A DNA stretch of 11,865 bases from a virus. The notes under the pieces are model-generated. The model had not been told where the DNA came from, did no database searches, and was given only the letters and a program-made list of their open reading frames with translations. Shown one piece after another: positions 1,267-8,720 of this stretch. A program made the translations under genes and the position numbers. Within the stretch, counting starts at the first letter, position 1. Each line of letters opens with the position of its first letter. The stretch lies in the UHGV virus genome UHGV-1591674. One strand, given 5' to 3'.

Positions 1267-1509
1267 ATGCTTGCCCAGGAATTAGTAGACCGCATGAAAA
1301 ATGCGATGAAGCACAAAGTACCGGCGGAGACAGTCGATCGCAGCGCTGAACTGATTCCGGGGATGAAATACCGCAACGAACGCGGACGCATGGTGACGGT
1401 AATGAGAGTTTCTCATCTTCGGGTTATGTACCGATACGAAGGCTATCAGGACATCTGCGAGACCAGTCGCAGAGAGTTTGATTTGAAATTTAAGAAGGTG
1501 CAGCAATGA
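1267..1509 (+). CDS. Small phage protein, DUF4222-like (hypothetical)
   Basis: 80-aa ORF, GGAGG at 1257-1261 five nt before ATG 1267. Stop overlaps the next start (ATGA at 1506-1509). Small basic proteins of this type commonly precede replication genes in enterobacterial prophages. Confidence 0.7.
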   Translation: MLAQELVDRMKNAMKHKVPAETVDRSAELIPGMKYRNERGRMVTVMRVSHLRVMYRYEGYQDICETSRREFDLKFKKVQQ

Positions 1510-2531
1510 GTCTTGATGCCATGCGCTGGGCTAAGAAAGCTAAAACGGGTCGATCGTCTGCCAAGTCAGTTCTGACCTGGATGGCGGACATGTGCGGCGC
1601 AGACTTTACGACATACCCATCAATTGCGGCGCTTGCCGAGGCGACAGAACTGGATAAAAAAACCGTCCAGGCCAGCCTGCAGCATTTGGTGGAAAACGGT
1701 TTTATCCAGGATACCGGAGAGCGCCGCGGACGCACAAAGCAAATCCCCGTTTACAAGCTGGTGGGCGTTGAGGAAAGCATCGAAGACGCAGAACGAACCC
1801 AAAAACGGGAACATTACCAAAAACGGGACACTTTAAAGAAACCCAAAAACGGGACTGTTAAACCAAACGCCCCCAAAAACGGGTGTATTAAAAGCGGTGA
1901 AACGATCCCGTTTTTTCCGTCAAACGATCCCAAAAACGGGATACGGAATCCCCCAGAGGAATCAAAAGACTTAAACCCCACACATAACGCGCGAGAGTCA
2001 GAGGTCGAACCAGTTAACAACAACCCGGTTCCTGAATACCCCGGACAGCCTGGTATGAATTTTCCCGCCGGAGAGTCATATGGGAAGGTCCCAATGACCA
2101 TTGACTGGAAACCGTCGGCTGACTTTCGCCAGCGTGTTGGATTCTGGGGCATAACGATCCCGGATGGACTGAACCTCAGAGCCGAGCTGAACAGCTTCAT
2201 TGCCTACTGGCAGCCAGAGAATAAAGTTTTTTACCAGTCGCAGTGGGAGCAGAAATTTGCCCGCCACCTGCAACAGGCCAAACCCACTAAACCGCGAGGT
2301 AACTCACATGCTGGACTGGATCCAAACTCCACAGCAAACGCAGCTGTACAGCGAGCACGCGCAGCACGCGCTGCACAACTCCGCGCTCGAGGAGAAGGCG
2401 TGGAAGTTCTGGGTTCTCATGCTGGAAATTTACTCCAGCCGATGGGAAACCAAAAACGGATCGGCTCCGTCGGACCTATGGATTGCTCAGATTGGGAATT
2501 TGACCAGCGACCGGATGACGAGCGTCTGTAA
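1506..2531 (+). CDS. Phage replication initiation protein (N-terminal winged-helix/HTH, C-terminal DnaT-like domain)
   Basis: 341-aa ORF. The N-terminus (MSLDAMRWAKK...LVENGFIQDTGERRGRTKQIPVYKL) resembles phage replication-protein HTH domains; the C-terminal region (IDWKPSADFRQRVGFWGI...FIAYWQPENKVFYQSQWEQKFARHL) resembles the DnaT-like ssDNA-binding domain. Iterons lie inside the gene. The last ~75 codons are low-complexity and overlap the P-like gene, so the true 3' end is uncertain. Confidence 0.8.
   Translation: MSLDAMRWAKKAKTGRSSAKSVLTWMADMCGADFTTYPSIAALAEATELDKKTVQASLQHLVENGFIQDTGERRGRTKQIPVYKLVGVEESIEDAERTQKREHYQKRDTLKKPKNGTVKPNAPKNGCIKSGETIPFFPSNDPKNGIRNPPEESKDLNPTHNARESEVEPVNNNPVPEYPGQPGMNFPAGESYGKVPMTIDWKPSADFRQRVGFWGITIPDGLNLRAELNSFIAYWQPENKVFYQSQWEQKFARHLQQAKPTKPRGNSHAGLDPNSTANAAVQRARAARAAQLRARGEGVEVLGSHAGNLLQPMGNQKRIGSVGPMDCSDWEFDQRPDDERL
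1799..1941. repeat. Origin-of-replication iteron array (5 direct repeats of CCAAAAACGGGA plus one inverted partial copy)
   Basis: Direct copies at 1799-1810, 1817-1828, 1843-1854, 1873-1884 (last base T) and 1930-1941. Inverted partial copy TCCCGTTTTTT at about 1906-1918. Each direct copy encodes a PKNG/KNG motif in the initiator protein. Same architecture as lambda ori inside gene O. Confidence 0.65.
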
Positions 2532-2970
2532 CGCGATGGTTGCTCGCTGTGCGGCGGGTAATTCATGGCCACCTGACCTGGCCGAGTTCGTGACGCTGGT
2601 GGCTGACTGTGACGGTGGGAAGCTTGGACTGAAGGTTTCGGACGTTATGGCGGAATACAGGAACTGGCGCAACGAATCTTACCGTTACGCCAGCACTGAG
2701 GAATATTTCATTGACCGCAAATGTAATCCGGTCCTGTACCAGATTTGCACCGAACTTCGCCGAACTGGTGTTGAGCGACAAATGACCCAACCCGAGCTGG
2801 AGAGACTGGCTGCGGACCAACTGGTGAAGTGGGAAAAACACCTGGAGGATGGCAAGCCGATCCCTCCGGTAAGAAAACAGATTGCGGCGCCGCGCCATCC
2901 GGCAGGACCGACACCCGCGCAGCAGCTGCTTGAAGAATACAAACGCCGTAAAGCGGCTGGCTTAATTTAA
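2308..2970 (+). CDS. Replication protein P-like (DnaB helicase loader)
   Basis: The C-terminal region ELERLAADQLVKWEKHLEDGKPIPPVRKQI parallels lambda P ELRRKAADELVHMTARINRGEAIPEPVKQL, and the central WVL...MTSVCNAMVAR region parallels lambda P. Start set at ATG 2308 (GAGG at 2296-2299); the track ORF opens at 2200 but those codons look like out-of-frame readthrough of the upstream gene. ATG 2419 is an alternative start. Confidence 0.75.
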   Translation: MLDWIQTPQQTQLYSEHAQHALHNSALEEKAWKFWVLMLEIYSSRWETKNGSAPSDLWIAQIGNLTSDRMTSVCNAMVARCAAGNSWPPDLAEFVTLVADCDGGKLGLKVSDVMAEYRNWRNESYRYASTEEYFIDRKCNPVLYQICTELRRTGVERQMTQPELERLAADQLVKWEKHLEDGKPIPPVRKQIAAPRHPAGPTPAQQLLEEYKRRKAAGLI

Positions 2971-4680: not shown

Positions 4681-4876
4681 GCTGAATTATAACCCGGCAG
4701 ACCCCGATAAAATGCAACTCCCGAAGGGTAAGACCTGCGGCGACTGCGCCCATATCCGTCGCTGTAAGGCAATTTTCGGGCATACCGAAACCGATGCCTA
4801 TTGCGATTGGTCGCCGTCCCGAGCGGTTTTCCGTCAACCATCGAATCCAGAAGGCGGTGACCATGCGATTAATTAA
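4673..4876 (+). CDS. Hypothetical small Cys-rich protein (putative zinc-binding)
   Basis: Start taken at ATG 4673, which overlaps the upstream stop (ATGACTGA); the track ORF opens at 4628. Product MTELNYNPADPDKMQLPKGKTCGDCAHIRRCKAIFGHTETDAYCDW carries a CxxC-x5-C...C pattern. Confidence 0.55.
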   Translation: MTELNYNPADPDKMQLPKGKTCGDCAHIRRCKAIFGHTETDAYCDWSPSRAVFRQPSNPEGGDHAIN

Positions 4877-5105
4877 CCGAGGCAACCAGCAATCCCCGTT
4901 AGCGCGTCAGGCATGCGACATAGCACTGGCCACTCATGCAGAACGTTACGGCGACTATGGCCGCAGCAAGATGAAGGAGACATACACGGTGAGAGTTGAA
5001 GGCGTGAAGGTATGGGTTGAGGTGGTGAACCGTAAGGCGAGCTACGTGGCCACAGCAATGACAGGTATGCGCCGGTTGCGCGCACTTCCGGGTCAGGTTT
5101 CTTGA
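4863..5105 (+). CDS. Hypothetical small phage protein
   Basis: Start taken at ATG 4863 (14-nt overlap with the upstream gene); the track ORF opens at 4794. Its 3' end (5062-5105) overlaps the open methyltransferase-like reading frame. Confidence 0.5.
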   Translation: MRLINRGNQQSPLARQACDIALATHAERYGDYGRSKMKETYTVRVEGVKVWVEVVNRKASYVATAMTGMRRLRALPGQVS

Positions 5106-5214
5106 TATTCGCGCCGAAGAGCACGAGCTGTGCGACGGTCGGCGCCTGGTTATCAGTCCCGACCTGATTTCAGACTTTCGTTCACTGCCGTTCGCTGATT
5201 CTTCTTTTCCAGTT

Positions 5215-5493
5215 GTGGTGTTTGACCCACCGCATCTCGAGCGCGTTGGCCAGTCTGCCTGGATGGGTAAAAAATACGGGCGACTGAACAAAAAAACGTG
5301 GCGCTCTGACTTACGCGCCGGTTTCAAAGAGGCTTTTCGCGTACTGCGGCCACATGGCGTGCTCATATTCAAATGGAACGAGACGCAGATCCCGGTTAGC
5401 CAGATTCTGGCGCTTACAGATGTGAAACCTGCAATTGGTCAGCGTACCGGGAAGAACGACAAAACCCACTGGATTATTTTTGTGAAGGACTAA
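5215..5493 (+). CDS. DNA methyltransferase-like N-terminal fragment (amino-methyltransferase motif IV DPPH; probably truncated or pseudogenised)
   Basis: Product carries SSFPVVVFDPPHL (DPP[YFH] motif IV) and AGFKEAFRVLRPHGVLIFKW (the RVLKPGG-type motif of beta-class N6/N4 methyltransferases), but no FxGxG AdoMet motif. Only 92 aa from the first canonical start (GTG 5215, no Shine-Dalgarno). The frame is open upstream to 5062 with methyltransferase-like sequence. Confidence 0.55.
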   Translation: MVFDPPHLERVGQSAWMGKKYGRLNKKTWRSDLRAGFKEAFRVLRPHGVLIFKWNETQIPVSQILALTDVKPAIGQRTGKNDKTHWIIFVKD

Positions 5494-5496
5494 CTC

Positions 5497-5877
5497 ATGG
5501 CAACTAACAACCACCCGGCGCAAGGTCCTGTATCTGTCGATCGCCTGCACCAGATAAGCGAAATACTCAGCAAAGCAGCAGCACAAAGCGACGGCGGTAA
5601 TCTCGGCTACGCAATGGCTGATGCTGTGAAGGTTATCGACGAGTTGCTGTCGGTGCGGAAGACGGCGGCGCAGGAAGCGGTGTATCAGGTATTAGACGAT
5701 GGAAGTTGGACTGATTACAGCAAACAGCAACTGGAGGTCCTGCTTGAATCGAAACCATCCACACTTTTCCGAGTTGCCTACCCATCTCCAAGTTTAACGC
5801 AGCCAGCGCCGGTAGTGGATGATGCTGTGAAGGTGATTGAATGGGTGCTTGAAGCGAGGAATGCGGGGTCGGAATAA
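5497..5877 (+). CDS. Hypothetical phage protein with internal duplicated motif
   Basis: 126-aa ORF. GAAGGA seven nt upstream of ATG 5497. Internal repeat ADAVKVIDELL / DDAVKVIEWVL. Followed by an intrinsic terminator. Confidence 0.7.
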   Translation: MATNNHPAQGPVSVDRLHQISEILSKAAAQSDGGNLGYAMADAVKVIDELLSVRKTAAQEAVYQVLDDGSWTDYSKQQLEVLLESKPSTLFRVAYPSPSLTQPAPVVDDAVKVIEWVLEARNAGSE

Positions 5878-5916
5878 ACAAATAATTAATGCATTGAATG
5901 AATTGTCCATAGAATG

Positions 5917-5948
5917 AAAAACCATCTTATCACGATGGTTTTTTTATT
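5917..5948 (+). terminator. Rho-independent terminator
   Basis: Stem ACCATC (5921-5926) / GATGGT (5934-5939) with loop TTATCAC, flanked by an A-run upstream and a T-run downstream (5940-5946). Marks the transition from GC-rich phage genes to the AT-rich insertion. Confidence 0.6.
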
Positions 5949-6011
5949 ATTTATGGGATAGAAAGAGGGGGTATAAGTTATCTACCTGAAAATAAAAATC
6001 GAGTTAATCAA

Positions 6012-6794
6012 GTGACAACAAAGAATCGACACGGTCTTTCTCGGCAAGTGCCTGCAGAGGTTAAACGAGTTATCAGGCAAAGATGTGGATTTGGCTGCGT
6101 GATCTGTGGCTTCGGATTCTATGAGTACGAGCACTTCGATCCAGATTTTGCTGATGCTACCGAACACAACCCTAATGGAATGACATTGTTATGTTCTCAA
6201 TGTAACCAGAAACGAGCCAGGGGCAGACTGTCCGCTGAAAAGGTTGCTTCAGCTAATGCTCATCCTAAGTGCCTTCAACAAGGGTTTGCGAATGAGCTTT
6301 TTGATTTTCATAGCGAACCATTGGAAATAGTTTTGGGTGGATTAACGTTCTACAACTGCGAGCACCTTATAGTAGTAAATGATAGGCCTATCTTGTCTGT
6401 TCAGTCATCTCCTGAACCAAACTCTCCAATGTTACTCTCGGGAGTATTCTGCGATGTACTAGGAAGGGAGATGTTAAGAATCCATGAGAATGAATGGTCT
6501 GTTAATTTAGATAATTGGGATGTTGACTGTGAGGGGCCGAGAATAACCATTAGAAGTGCTCCCCGTCAGATTGCCCTTGTTTTGAAAATGAATCCCCCGA
6601 GGGGAATAATTGTAGAGCGATTAGACATGACTTTTGAGGGGGTAAGATTTATAGGGGATGAGCAGAACTTGCGATTTACTATGGATGGAAGTAACTGGCA
6701 TAAGTGGTCTGGCTGCTCAATGAGGAACGGCTATGTAGGTATAGCCATTGAGACTAGGCCAAGAGCGGCAAACGATCCTATGTATATATTATGA
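6012..6794 (+). CDS. HNH endonuclease-domain protein (N-terminal zinc-finger HNH, C-terminal domain of unknown function), AT-rich acquired gene
   Basis: 260-aa ORF with GTG start at 6012. N-terminal motif RCGFGCVICGF...YEYEHFDP...HNPNGMTLLCSQCNQKR fits the CxxC...H...N...CxxC HNH fold. Hand-sampled 60-nt lines give about 40-47% GC against about 60% in a flanking phage gene. Preceded by a terminator. In frame with the downstream methyltransferase fragment, separated by a single TGA (6792-6794). Confidence 0.8.
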   Translation: MTTKNRHGLSRQVPAEVKRVIRQRCGFGCVICGFGFYEYEHFDPDFADATEHNPNGMTLLCSQCNQKRARGRLSAEKVASANAHPKCLQQGFANELFDFHSEPLEIVLGGLTFYNCEHLIVVNDRPILSVQSSPEPNSPMLLSGVFCDVLGREMLRIHENEWSVNLDNWDVDCEGPRITIRSAPRQIALVLKMNPPRGIIVERLDMTFEGVRFIGDEQNLRFTMDGSNWHKWSGCSMRNGYVGIAIETRPRAANDPMYIL

Positions 6795-6806
6795 ATTACT
6801 TTCTAT

Positions 6807-7061
6807 TTGTTAATACTGCAACCACATGAGCTTTACCGTGCTCAGGGCTTCCCTGAGTGGTACATCATTGACCAGGACTATCGGGGCAAGAAGTACGCAA
6901 AAGACAAACAAGTTGCCCGCTGTGGTAACGCCGTACCACCGCCGTTCGCTGAAGCGCTGGTCCGGGCTATTTACCGGAGCTTTGTCAGCAGAAAGAAATT
7001 GCAGCTTAATGTCCGAGTTTCAGAGCAGGGTGTAACAAATCCTGCTACTTCAATGACGTAG
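6807..7061 (+). pseudogene. C5-cytosine DNA methyltransferase C-terminal fragment (motifs IX and X only)
   Basis: PHELYRAQGFPEWY and RCGNAVPPPFAEALVRAI correspond to C5-methyltransferase motifs IX (LQGFP) and X (GNAV), matching the C-terminus of the full enzyme at 8717..10210 (RLQGFPD...AIGNSMAVPV). No motifs I, IV or VI precede it. A second diverged copy of its 3' end lies at about 7452-7580. Confidence 0.55.
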
Positions 7062-7070
7062 ATTCAAACT

Positions 7071-7079
7071 TGATATAAT
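7071..7079 (+). promoter_or_regulatory. Extended -10 promoter (TGATATAAT) for the small gene 7108..7344
   Basis: TG at 7071-7072 followed by a perfect TATAAT at 7074-7079, about 30 nt upstream of ATG 7108. Shine-Dalgarno GAGGA at 7096-7100. A hairpin AGGCTC (7080-7085) / GAGCCT (7099-7104) overlaps the ribosome-binding site. Confidence 0.4.
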
Positions 7080-7107
7080 AGGCTCTTCACAACACGAGGA
7101 GCCTAAA

Positions 7108-7344
7108 ATGCACCATTACATGATCCCTATCAACGGAACTGTTCACCTGATTAAGACTGATTCTCTAATCCCTGAAGGGACTGAGTATAGCTTTGAAGGA
7201 GAAAGTCTAATCTGCGCTCATGCCACTTTTAAATCTGGGACGTATGGCTTCCTGATACCAAAGGGAAATCAGTTGAATAGAGAGCATGCGTTCTGGCATG
7301 TAAGTGGAATTCACCCTAACCCCCTGGAAATAGATAAACCGTAA
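7108..7344 (+). CDS. Hypothetical small protein (AT-rich moron, unknown function)
   Basis: 78-aa ORF with a strong ribosome-binding site and its own promoter-like element. Lies between two diverged copies of a methyltransferase 3' end. No recognisable motif. Confidence 0.6.
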   Translation: MHHYMIPINGTVHLIKTDSLIPEGTEYSFEGESLICAHATFKSGTYGFLIPKGNQLNREHAFWHVSGIHPNPLEIDKP

Positions 7345-7447
7345 TCCACATGCCATCGCCCTGAACACACGGTGGCATGCATCCGGCACTTTAACGGAAA
7401 CGTTAAAGTGCAAAATACAATTCGAGCAATATTCAACCAGTTAAAGA

Positions 7448-7587
7448 TGGCGAATACCACCGCCATTTCGTGCCTTCTGCTGTTTCTATTACCCATTACG
7501 CTAATCCTGCCCAAACATCAGCTCGCTGAGGCGCTGGTTAGGGCTAACCTACAGGAGCTTTGTCAGCATAAACAAATAGCGGCGTAA
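7448..7587 (+). pseudogene. Degenerate second copy of the C5-methyltransferase 3' end
   Basis: DNA at 7452-7461 (TACCACCGCC) and 7522-7580 aligns with 6933-7005 at roughly 80% identity, interrupted by a ~50-bp insertion. The track ORF 7372..7587 ends in AEALVRANLQELCQ, mirroring AEALVRAIYRSFVS in the 6807..7061 fragment. Confidence 0.45.
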
Positions 7588-7604
7588 TAAAACATTGCTA
7601 ATTC

Positions 7605-7632
7605 AACCCACTACGGCGGGTTTTCTTTTTTT
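7605..7632 (+). terminator. Rho-independent terminator
   Basis: Stem AACCC (7605-7609) / GGGTT (7618-7622) followed by TTCTTTTTTT (7623-7632). Confidence 0.5.
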
Positions 7633-7714: not shown

Positions 7715-7732
7715 TATGCAATGGAGGCCATT

Positions 7733-7969
7733 ATGAAAGTTGAATTAACCATTGATCGCATGAAAGAACTTCCTAAAGGCGCGGTACCAGCACTGGAGAA
7801 AGAATTGCTTAAGCGTCTGAATGATCACTATGACAATTGCAGACTCACAATCCGCCGTGCCGGTTCAGATGGGTTAAGTGTTTTTGGCGGTGACAAGGAC
7901 GACAAAAAGAAAATTGAATCAATCCTCCAGGATACCTGGGAAAGTGCAGACGAGTGGTTTGTTAACTAA
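7733..7969 (+). CDS. dinI: DinI-family DNA-damage-inducible protein
   Basis: GGAGG at 7723-7727 five nt before ATG 7733. Product ends ILQDTWESADEWFVN, closely matching E. coli DinI (ILQETWESADDWFV). A LexA box sits immediately upstream. Confidence 0.85.
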   Translation: MKVELTIDRMKELPKGAVPALEKELLKRLNDHYDNCRLTIRRAGSDGLSVFGGDKDDKKKIESILQDTWESADEWFVN

Positions 7970-8273: not shown

Positions 8274-8417
8274 GTTGGGTTATACTCAACACGGGTCTGA
8301 ACAGCCCGCTGAGTAACACTGCGCCAACCGGGAAAACGCGATGGCGCATAAAACTGAATTACCCCATTCACACCGTTCCTTCGTGAGCGGTGTCGCTGTT
8401 TGTGCTGGTGGTGCAGC

Positions 8418-8720
8418 ATGAGCAGATCAAAGACCAAAGCCGAAAAACTTCATCTTTCCCGCGTAGCCGGGCTGGGTTGTATTGTCTGCAAAAACCTGAA
8501 GCTGGGTGAAACCCCAGCAGAGATACATCACATCCGAACTGGCCAGGGAGTTGGCCAGCGCGCTGACAATTTCAAAGTTATTCCTCTTTGCCCAATCCAT
8601 CACCGTCAGGGCGGACACGGCATAGCCATTCATGCTGGCCGCCAGTCCTGGGAAAACAATTTCGGTACTGAAACAGAGTTGCTGGTGCAGGTTCTCTACG
8701 AACTGGGGGAATCAGCGTGA
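8418..8720 (+). CDS. Ref-like recombination-enhancement HNH-type nuclease (small phage HNH protein)
   Basis: Start at ATG 8418 (GGTGGTG upstream). Product contains CIVC...EIHHIRTGQG...CPIHHRQGGHG, a CxxC/HH pattern typical of Ref-family HNH proteins. Stop overlaps the GTG start of the methyltransferase (GTGA at 8717-8720). Confidence 0.65.
   Translation: MSRSKTKAEKLHLSRVAGLGCIVCKNLKLGETPAEIHHIRTGQGVGQRADNFKVIPLCPIHHRQGGHGIAIHAGRQSWENNFGTETELLVQVLYELGESA

Follow-up and report, generated by a model that had tools for sequence, protein, structure and literature searches.

McrA is a stand-alone restriction nuclease that is carried by a prophage. In Cap5, the HNH-SAVED effector of the cyclic-oligonucleotide-based anti-phage signalling system (CBASS), an HNH nuclease is gated by a sensor domain. 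DS-7 (“SVIR”, WP_225403053.1), a single E. coli protein of 368 residues that was validated in DefensePredictor, joins a Cap5-like N-terminal HNH domain (HHpred to 7RWK) to a non-DNA-binding, baseplate-like C-terminal DUF2634 (PMC13092281). Here, we describe a gene for a stand-alone protein of 260 residues in the virus genome UHGV-1591674, of which a stretch of 11,865 nucleotides, hereafter called the window, was analysed. The gene encodes a predicted zinc-finger HNH nuclease followed by an acidic all-beta domain. It lies in the accessory (ren/nin) region of a lambdoid prophage of Citrobacter, and is probably part of a self-contained mobile transcription unit. We infer nuclease activity, a defence phenotype and a regulatory role of the C-terminal domain. 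Judging from sequence features and from analogy with known systems, we favour, with moderate confidence, the reading that the gene is a moron encoding an anti-phage nuclease, with the C-terminal domain acting as the gate of the HNH domain. The proposal that it is the founding example of a widespread single-protein immune nuclease, in which a C-terminal domain of undescribed fold would sense infection and switch on an HNH DNase, is more tentative.

Annotation and library searches identified the window as the early-right region of a lambdoid prophage (Table 1). In public records, the exact 260-residue protein is named “MULTISPECIES: hypothetical protein [Citrobacter]”, which points to a Citrobacter of the freundii group as the host; a locus from a public assembly (L018) is 100% identical to the window, and gene finders predict the identical protein on contigs in 92 blocks of public assemblies. 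The start of the 260-residue form is correct, as N5, G8, L9 and R11 are invariant in homologues whose ATG start sits at the same place. RefSeq/PGAP frequently starts the protein at internal GTG codons (6012–6101), yielding forms of 248 residues (from V13) and 231 residues (from V30). These calls are too short because they remove the four invariant residues, and the 231-residue form also loses C25 and C29 of the zinc finger.

Residues 1–90 are basic (isoelectric point, pI, 9.1) and consist of a helix and a beta-beta-alpha-metal HNH zinc finger in an AlphaFold2 model built from an alignment of 43 sequences (predicted local distance difference test score, pLDDT, 83.6; predicted template-modelling score, pTM, 0.72). 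The zinc site is predicted to be formed by C29-x2-C32 and C61-x2-C64. E40 and H41 lie on strand 1, H41 being the predicted general base, and N65, on the helix, is a predicted metal ligand. The features of the HNH superfamily, which are the catalytic histidine on the first beta strand, an asparagine or histidine on the helix for metal binding and two CxxC pairs, are thus all present. H41, H52, C29 and C61 are invariant down to about 30% identity. Position 65 is a histidine in most distant members and an asparagine in the subgroup of the window, which is hence an HNN variant. In a structure search, the fold matches HNH nucleases, with Cap5 as the top match. A sequence-only reading of this DNA had called the product a zinc-finger HNH nuclease, and the CxxC pairs, the EH pair and the asparagine it quoted are found in the open reading frame (ORF) at 6012–6794; both the sequence and the model indicate that the gene encodes a probable HNH zinc-finger nuclease.

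The C-terminal domain is an all-beta meander in the same model and is acidic, with a pI of 4.9 (family median, about 5). Conserved motifs include ExxDF (residues 95–99), SG (143–144), N160, WD (169–170) and G175. The C-terminal 165 residues or so have no match in Pfam, NCBIfam or PADLOC, and no meaningful match to a PDB sequence even by profile. No relative by fold was found in the PDB, and Foldseek returned nothing from BFVD at E ≤ 0.001. These searches bear out the statement of the sequence-only reading that the domain resembles nothing recognisable; remote homology and Foldseek place it in no known family, and they yielded no relative that would explain it. Domain shuffling was considered and rejected, as the C-terminal profile recovered only HNH-bearing members or short fragments and, among the PHROGs, matches phrog_6544 only. 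The two domains therefore form an obligate pair. A C-terminal DNA-binding domain, as had been proposed from the sequence alone, is contradicted by the acidic, all-beta character of this region, in which searches for DNA-binding modules found no NUMOD, IENR1 or helix-turn-helix (HTH) match. The pairing of an acidic C-terminal domain with a basic HNH domain fits a regulatory rather than a DNA-binding role.

The C-terminal domain could, in principle, be a reader of modification or structure in foreign DNA. The protein would then be a constitutive type IV-style restriction nuclease, which cuts directly and elicits no abortive response. Like McrA, the gene stands alone: it is a solitary nuclease gene with no cognate methyltransferase, the adjoining methyltransferase piece being a non-functional remnant, and the conservation of the C-terminal domain would fit a conserved chemical ligand. 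However, none of the modified-base readers looked for (SRA, PUA/EVE, SBD, McrB-N) was recognisable in this domain, which is too acidic (pI about 5) to sit easily with such a role; the protein has no match to the PADLOC mREase_IV models, its domain order is the reverse of that of known HNH type IV enzymes, and the host phage encodes a C5 methyltransferase that, from its sequence, looks active. We regard this explanation as unlikely.

The mobile unit was delimited by blastn of the window against 100 related loci. The cassette opens with the final 62 nt of the upstream ORF, followed by a terminator and an AT-rich leader, and continues with the HNH gene and an 18-nt 3′ flank. In L017 and L022–L028, a single homology block runs from 5816 to about 7005–7010, through the methyltransferase remnant, at 83–99% DNA identity (86–99% protein identity), while the segment 5640–5815 differs between the window and these relatives. 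The terminator-like hairpin that follows the upstream ORF is predicted to insulate the gene from transcription of the upstream early operon. Comparable hairpins are found 5′ of family members in unrelated contexts (e.g., L055, L058, L065, L066 and L070). The next terminator-like site on the + strand is located at 7605–7622. A gene-specific promoter is presumed to lie in the leader, and we infer expression in the lysogen. As the sequence-only reading had noted, the gene is AT-rich (GC content 43.9%, and 40% at third codon positions, versus 52.6% for the early region upstream) and lies next to a methyltransferase remnant, which begins 12 nt past its end and corresponds to the end of PF00145. The gene shows presence/absence polymorphism, being absent from phage mEp237 and E. 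coli prophages with the same right flank. The L067 allele, which shares only 57% protein and 65% DNA identity with that of the window, lies between flanks that are 85–94% identical to the window, indicating allelic replacement at a fixed cargo site.

The 126-residue ORF upstream (5497–5877) is itself a mosaic. Its first 48 codons or so (5496–5639) are 91–94% identical in many relatives and in Salmonella and Citrobacter phages, its middle part differs, and its final 62 nt move with the HNH cassette.

The protein matches the profile of phrog_6544, a family of unknown function, from end to end (E = 1.8e-102; residues 1–255 versus positions 1–248 of 248). It has no above-threshold match in Pfam, no convincing match in NCBIfam and no match in PADLOC, and no meaningful sequence relative was found in the PDB, profile search included. 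A word-index search retrieved 289 homologues (50–87% identity) from Enterobacteriaceae, Burkholderia, Comamonas, Undibacterium, Alcaligenes and Vibrio; all are labelled only “hypothetical” or “HNH endonuclease”, and none carries a Pfam domain. When 1.84 billion cluster representatives were searched exhaustively with a profile, 2,666 clusters (50% identity) were obtained at E ≤ 0.001 and 815 at E ≤ 1e-30, and both domains are covered in nearly all of them. The counts of homologues and clusters are far above what chance would produce. When one genome per species was scanned, members were found in Alpha-, Beta- and Gammaproteobacteria, Cyanobacteria, Planctomycetes, Verrucomicrobia, Bacteroidetes, Actinobacteria, Firmicutes, Deinococcus, Chloroflexi, Nitrospirae and Myxococcales, as well as in one archaeal metagenome-assembled genome (Methanophagales). 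This patchy, bacteria-wide breadth suggests horizontal spread of the family. Members are rare on plasmids (6 of 72,556), and the E. coli allele WP_001348590.1 is present in 82 of 5,426 complete genomes. Databases thus already contain the family, under phrog_6544 and among hypothetical proteins, and no characterisation of it was found.

Some distant members extend beyond the two domains. For instance, P0133 carries additional C-terminal tetratricopeptide (TPR) repeats and P0136 a CxxCxxCC zinc/iron-chelating domain, while P0217 (672 residues) ends in an unannotated tail of about 420 residues. These extensions may be alternative regulatory inputs.

To look at the neighbourhood of the gene, all ORFs within 3 kb were clustered in 97 loci (the window, viral loci and others), which were sorted into 46 allele groups (90% identity). 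Even the most frequent neighbour families are present in 7 of these groups at most, and the recurrent ones belong to the phage backbone (integrase, RusA, Q, DinI and NinB). Similarly, no recurrent adjacent gene family was found in 77 genome loci, taken from one genome per species. A conserved partner gene, whether an immunity gene, an antitoxin, an ATPase or a CD-NTase (cGAS/DncV-like nucleotidyltransferase), was thus sought in both sets and rejected. The absence of a conserved neighbour indicates that the gene is a stand-alone, single-gene module. The sequence-only reading had also mentioned the small gene downstream. This 78-residue gene (7108–7344; phrog_30079) is present in mEp237, which has no HNH gene, and missing in L024, L028 and L067, which do; the two genes are therefore independent of each other. 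A 39-nt direct repeat (6972–7010 and 7550–7588; 85% identical) flanks the segment that holds the 78-residue gene, and L024, L028 and L067 lack exactly 7011–7524. It looks as if the duplicated 3′ end of the remnant had mediated the insertion or the deletion of this segment.

Contexts vary extensively. In the window and its close relatives, the gene follows the replication genes, in a cargo stretch that ends at the methyltransferase remnant and DinI. In Enterobacter lambdoid prophages it comes directly after gene P and is followed by small genes and a 459-residue RES-domain protein, and in E. coli it maps to a DLP12-like prophage, between ybcK/P22AR-C and ybcN. In a Buttiauxella P2-like prophage the gene is inserted between the replication gene A (gpA) and the portal gene Q (gpQ), and in a P2-like prophage of P. 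luteola it lies beside the portal gene, after a RelE/XRE pair. The gpA–gpQ interval, in which old and tin reside, has been defined as an anti-phage system hotspot (Rousset et al. 2022, PMC9122126). In a Burkholderia prophage, the gene lies in a block adjacent to the integrase, where its neighbours encode a PRTase-containing protein and a DprA-like protein, a pairing whose defence function has been validated (Rousset et al. 2022, PMC9122126). In an inovirus prophage, the gene is located between the integrase gene and zot. Outside prophages, in Undibacterium and Comamonas (L005, 8001–8789, and L012, 8001–8798), the gene is found in a small chromosomal islet between phaR and a miaB-like radical-SAM gene, along with HicAB and a transposase in one case and with a divergent XRE regulator in the other.

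That the phaR/miaB-like slot is shared while the companions differ suggests that Burkholderiales have a conserved site for integration or cargo. In the Enterobacter loci L008–L011 (9806–11185), the cargo after the HNH gene includes, besides the RES-domain protein of 459 residues, unannotated ORFs of 476 and 697 residues; these large ORFs could be additional defence or toxin candidates.

PADLOC models were also run on 146 flanking genes from the 77 species. Matches include AbiV/HEC-05 (two), AbiJ, type I and type IV restriction endonucleases, PbeA, IetA, BrxP, Cas1e and GajB-like models, among others. In a control set of 96 genes located at least 7 kb away in the same loci, DrmC (one), LmuC, CARF, SduA and generic ATPase or kinase models were matched. 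Enrichment of defence genes next to the gene is therefore at most suggestive, as it is not convincingly above this distant control, and the specific hotspot placements are stronger evidence than neighbour enrichment.

The position of the gene in an early-right operon, along with DinI, a Ref-like nuclease and RusA, raises the possibility that it serves the lytic cycle of the phage itself, for instance by processing recombination or replication intermediates, degrading host DNA or countering host defences, as nin-region nucleases might; that no promoter of its own was detected is in keeping with this. The family, however, is found well outside caudoviral early operons, namely in islets with HicAB or XRE genes, an inovirus, the P2 cargo hotspot and many non-phage loci, and in the window the upstream terminator insulates the gene. 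It is also absent from most related lambdoid phages and therefore dispensable. A role in the phage's own cycle seems rather improbable to us.

The gene had also been read, from the sequence alone, as a candidate homing endonuclease that inserted into the adjoining methyltransferase gene. A free-standing enzyme of this kind would cut an HNH-less allele near the methyltransferase, and repair would copy the gene in. The N-terminal position of the HNH domain, as in I-HmuI-type enzymes, the sporadic presence of the gene among related lambdoid prophages, its location next to a disrupted methyltransferase and the fact that the divergent L067 allele adjoins the remnant too would all agree with homing. 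The remnant comprises the final 55 residues or so of a C5 methyltransferase (PF00145 positions 278–323 of 324, E = 6.4e-6; phrog_23072 positions 333–389 of 400), and no N-terminal methyltransferase fragment is present upstream of the HNH gene. Moreover, the remnant occurs without the gene: phage mEp237 and E. coli prophages carry the block composed of remnant, 78-residue gene and DinI but no HNH gene (L001, L003 and L101 have the remnant without the gene). At least four 5′ truncation points differ. In mEp237, the remnant is longer (405 nt) and follows a Ren-like gene; homology starts at the window equivalent of 6813 in CUWW10, and at 6843 in 23CRST046, where it is fused after gene P. The L067 remnant starts at 6885 and adjoins the HNH allele, and that of Klebsiella phage ST846-OXA48phi9.2 starts at 6890, with three genes between the HNH homologue and the remnant. 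Truncation points thus vary with and without the HNH gene, and as the family contexts (P2 hotspot, inovirus, chromosomal islets, integrase-adjacent blocks) are mutually unrelated, there is no fixed association with a target gene. The C-terminal domain, being acidic, all-beta and devoid of NUMOD, IENR1 or HTH matches, is conserved across contexts and not adapted to different targets. Homing into the methyltransferase gene was rejected on comparison of the remnant junctions in mEp237, two E. coli prophages, the Klebsiella phage and L067, and a homing endonuclease of the free-standing type is very unlikely. The most plausible view of the remnant is that it marks the right-hand edge of a cargo hotspot, an edge that has eroded progressively.

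That the gene is selfish and toxin-like, or decaying, and benefits neither phage nor host is hardly credible, since shortened copies (L087, residues 1–106; L068, residues 1–214; 120-residue fragments in Enterobacter) and the missing partner antitoxin are outweighed by strong conservation of the full length (50–87% identity between Beta- and Gammaproteobacteria), invariant catalytic residues and thousands of clusters.

A moron-type anti-phage nuclease is consistent with the intact and invariant catalytic core, residence in cargo regions and hotspots, low GC content, the upstream terminator and the lack of a partner. Among the possibilities raised by the sequence-only reading, that of a moron-borne nuclease of the abortive-infection or restriction-like kind is accordingly the best supported, and we hold an anti-phage moron to be somewhat more probable than not. 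In the proposed mechanism, the basic zinc-finger HNH domain would bind and cut DNA, with H41 as general base and N65, perhaps together with E40 or H52, holding the metal. The acidic C-terminal domain would act as a gate or sensor, so that the nuclease stays silent as long as the phage is a lysogen. Superinfection would release the gate, either because an infection cue is bound or because oligomerisation is driven, or both. The released nuclease would then cleave phage DNA, and possibly host DNA, and the infection would fail.

Several observations weigh against an anti-phage role. Neither a sigma-70 consensus promoter on the + strand nor a clear Shine-Dalgarno sequence was found in the leader. 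As the window phage also has genes for an intact C5 methyltransferase and for other nucleases, a role in its own DNA metabolism is possible. The C-terminal domain is fairly conserved, not hypervariable as are many direct sensors of phage proteins. Defence models matched number 72 among 146 adjacent proteins and 35 among 96 distant ones, many matches being redundant or generic and the comparison having no genome-wide baseline. The window protein has no match in PADLOC-DB 2.0, the sole defence catalogue tested, and ten relatives gave only two marginal matches (E about 0.006) to short stretches of the HNH region. Literature searches by accession or PHROG identifier returned nothing, and no experiment on any family member was found.

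Table 1 Features of the window around the HNH gene
Feature	Position	Strand	Remarks
cI-like repressor	49–456	–	followed by a Cro-like gene and a YdaT-like gene
Replication genes	1506–2970		followed by a run of small accessory genes
Mobile cassette	5816–6812	+	from blastn against related loci
Intrinsic-terminator-like hairpin	5916–5944	+	11-bp stem and T run, after the upstream ORF
AT-rich leader, 67 nt	5945–6011	+	conserved in relatives at 86–99% protein identity
Gene for the 260-residue two-domain protein	6012–6794	+	GTG start; full-length phrog_6544
Predicted HNH (beta-beta-alpha-metal) zinc-finger nuclease domain	6012–6281	+	residues 1–90
Acidic all-beta domain	6297–6749	+	residues ~96–246; about 16 strands
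C5-cytosine methyltransferase C-terminal remnant	6807–7061	+	motifs IX–X; not part of the module
DinI	7721–7969		
Ref-like RecA-dependent HNH nuclease	8400–8720		PF16786/DUF968
Intact C5 methyltransferase, 497 residues	8717–10210		followed by RusA and a Q-like gene

Scans for tRNA and Rfam families revealed no RNA genes in the window. The Ref-like nuclease gene overlaps the start of the intact C5 methyltransferase gene by 4 nt, and RusA overlaps the 3′ end of the latter, forming a tightly packed nuclease-methylase-resolvase block. A third methyltransferase gene, at 4683–5493, encodes a class-I S-adenosylmethionine (SAM)-dependent enzyme (phrog_954) and is truncated at its 5′ end. About 420 bp of the window (4683–5102) replace 73 bp of L015 and L016, which encode the intact enzyme of 157 residues; the additional DNA carries a DUF4060 gene (4794–5105) and deletes the SAM-binding N-terminus. 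In total, the window contains two broken methyltransferases and an intact one.

If the more far-reaching proposal of a founding example were true, the family would represent a new class of sensor, independent of cyclic-nucleotide signalling, NTPases and partner proteins. If the defence function holds, the protein, at 260 residues, would be one of the smallest self-contained immune nucleases, in a family whose carriers include lambdoid, P2-like and filamentous prophages as well as chromosomal islets of many phyla. Knowledge of what the C-terminal domain binds would establish a new mode of nuclease gating and might provide a compact, switchable DNase for biotechnology. The dismissal of homing also affects how patterns of an HNH gene next to a broken gene are read in prophage scans.

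The described systems differ from the window protein in distinct ways. HNH type IV enzymes, such as EcoKMcrA, TagI, ScoMcrA and VcaM4I, have an N-terminal modified-base reader and a C-terminal HNH domain. In the window protein this order is reversed, the second domain matches no reader fold, and no PADLOC mREase_IV model is matched. Homing endonucleases of the I-HmuI type share the N-terminal HNH domain and the sporadic presence among related phages, but the window protein differs from them in having no DNA-binding modules, an acidic C-terminal domain, heterogeneous contexts and a neighbouring remnant that is independent of the gene. DS-7 resembles the window protein as a stand-alone HNH protein with an unusual C-terminal domain. 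Homology between the two was rejected (hhalign probability 0.3%); the HNH subtype and the C-terminal fold also differ.

Cap5 (PDB 7rwk, 7rwm and 8fm1) is the best structural match of the window protein. It is a defence HNH nuclease gated by a sensor, and it features the same order, with the HNH domain at the N-terminus and the sensor or regulatory domain at the C-terminus; this shared order supports the reading of the window protein as a sensor-gated or autoinhibited HNH DNase. In contrast to Cap5, the C-terminal domain of the window protein is all-beta and not a SAVED domain (110 residues align, with a root-mean-square deviation of 11.4 Å), and no sequence similarity to any PDB chain was detected. 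The window family also differs in having no CD-NTase or other conserved neighbour in the 46 allele groups and the 77 genome loci, and hence no cyclic-nucleotide signal is implied. The exclusion morons, such as old and tin of P2 or ren and rex of lambda, belong to unrelated protein families (Old combines an ABC-ATPase with a TOPRIM domain), and exclusion is a proposed function of the window family. Nevertheless, they occupy the same niches, namely the gpA–gpQ hotspot and the lambdoid region after gene P, and share with the window gene the organisation of an apparently autonomous unit of atypical GC content behind an upstream terminator.

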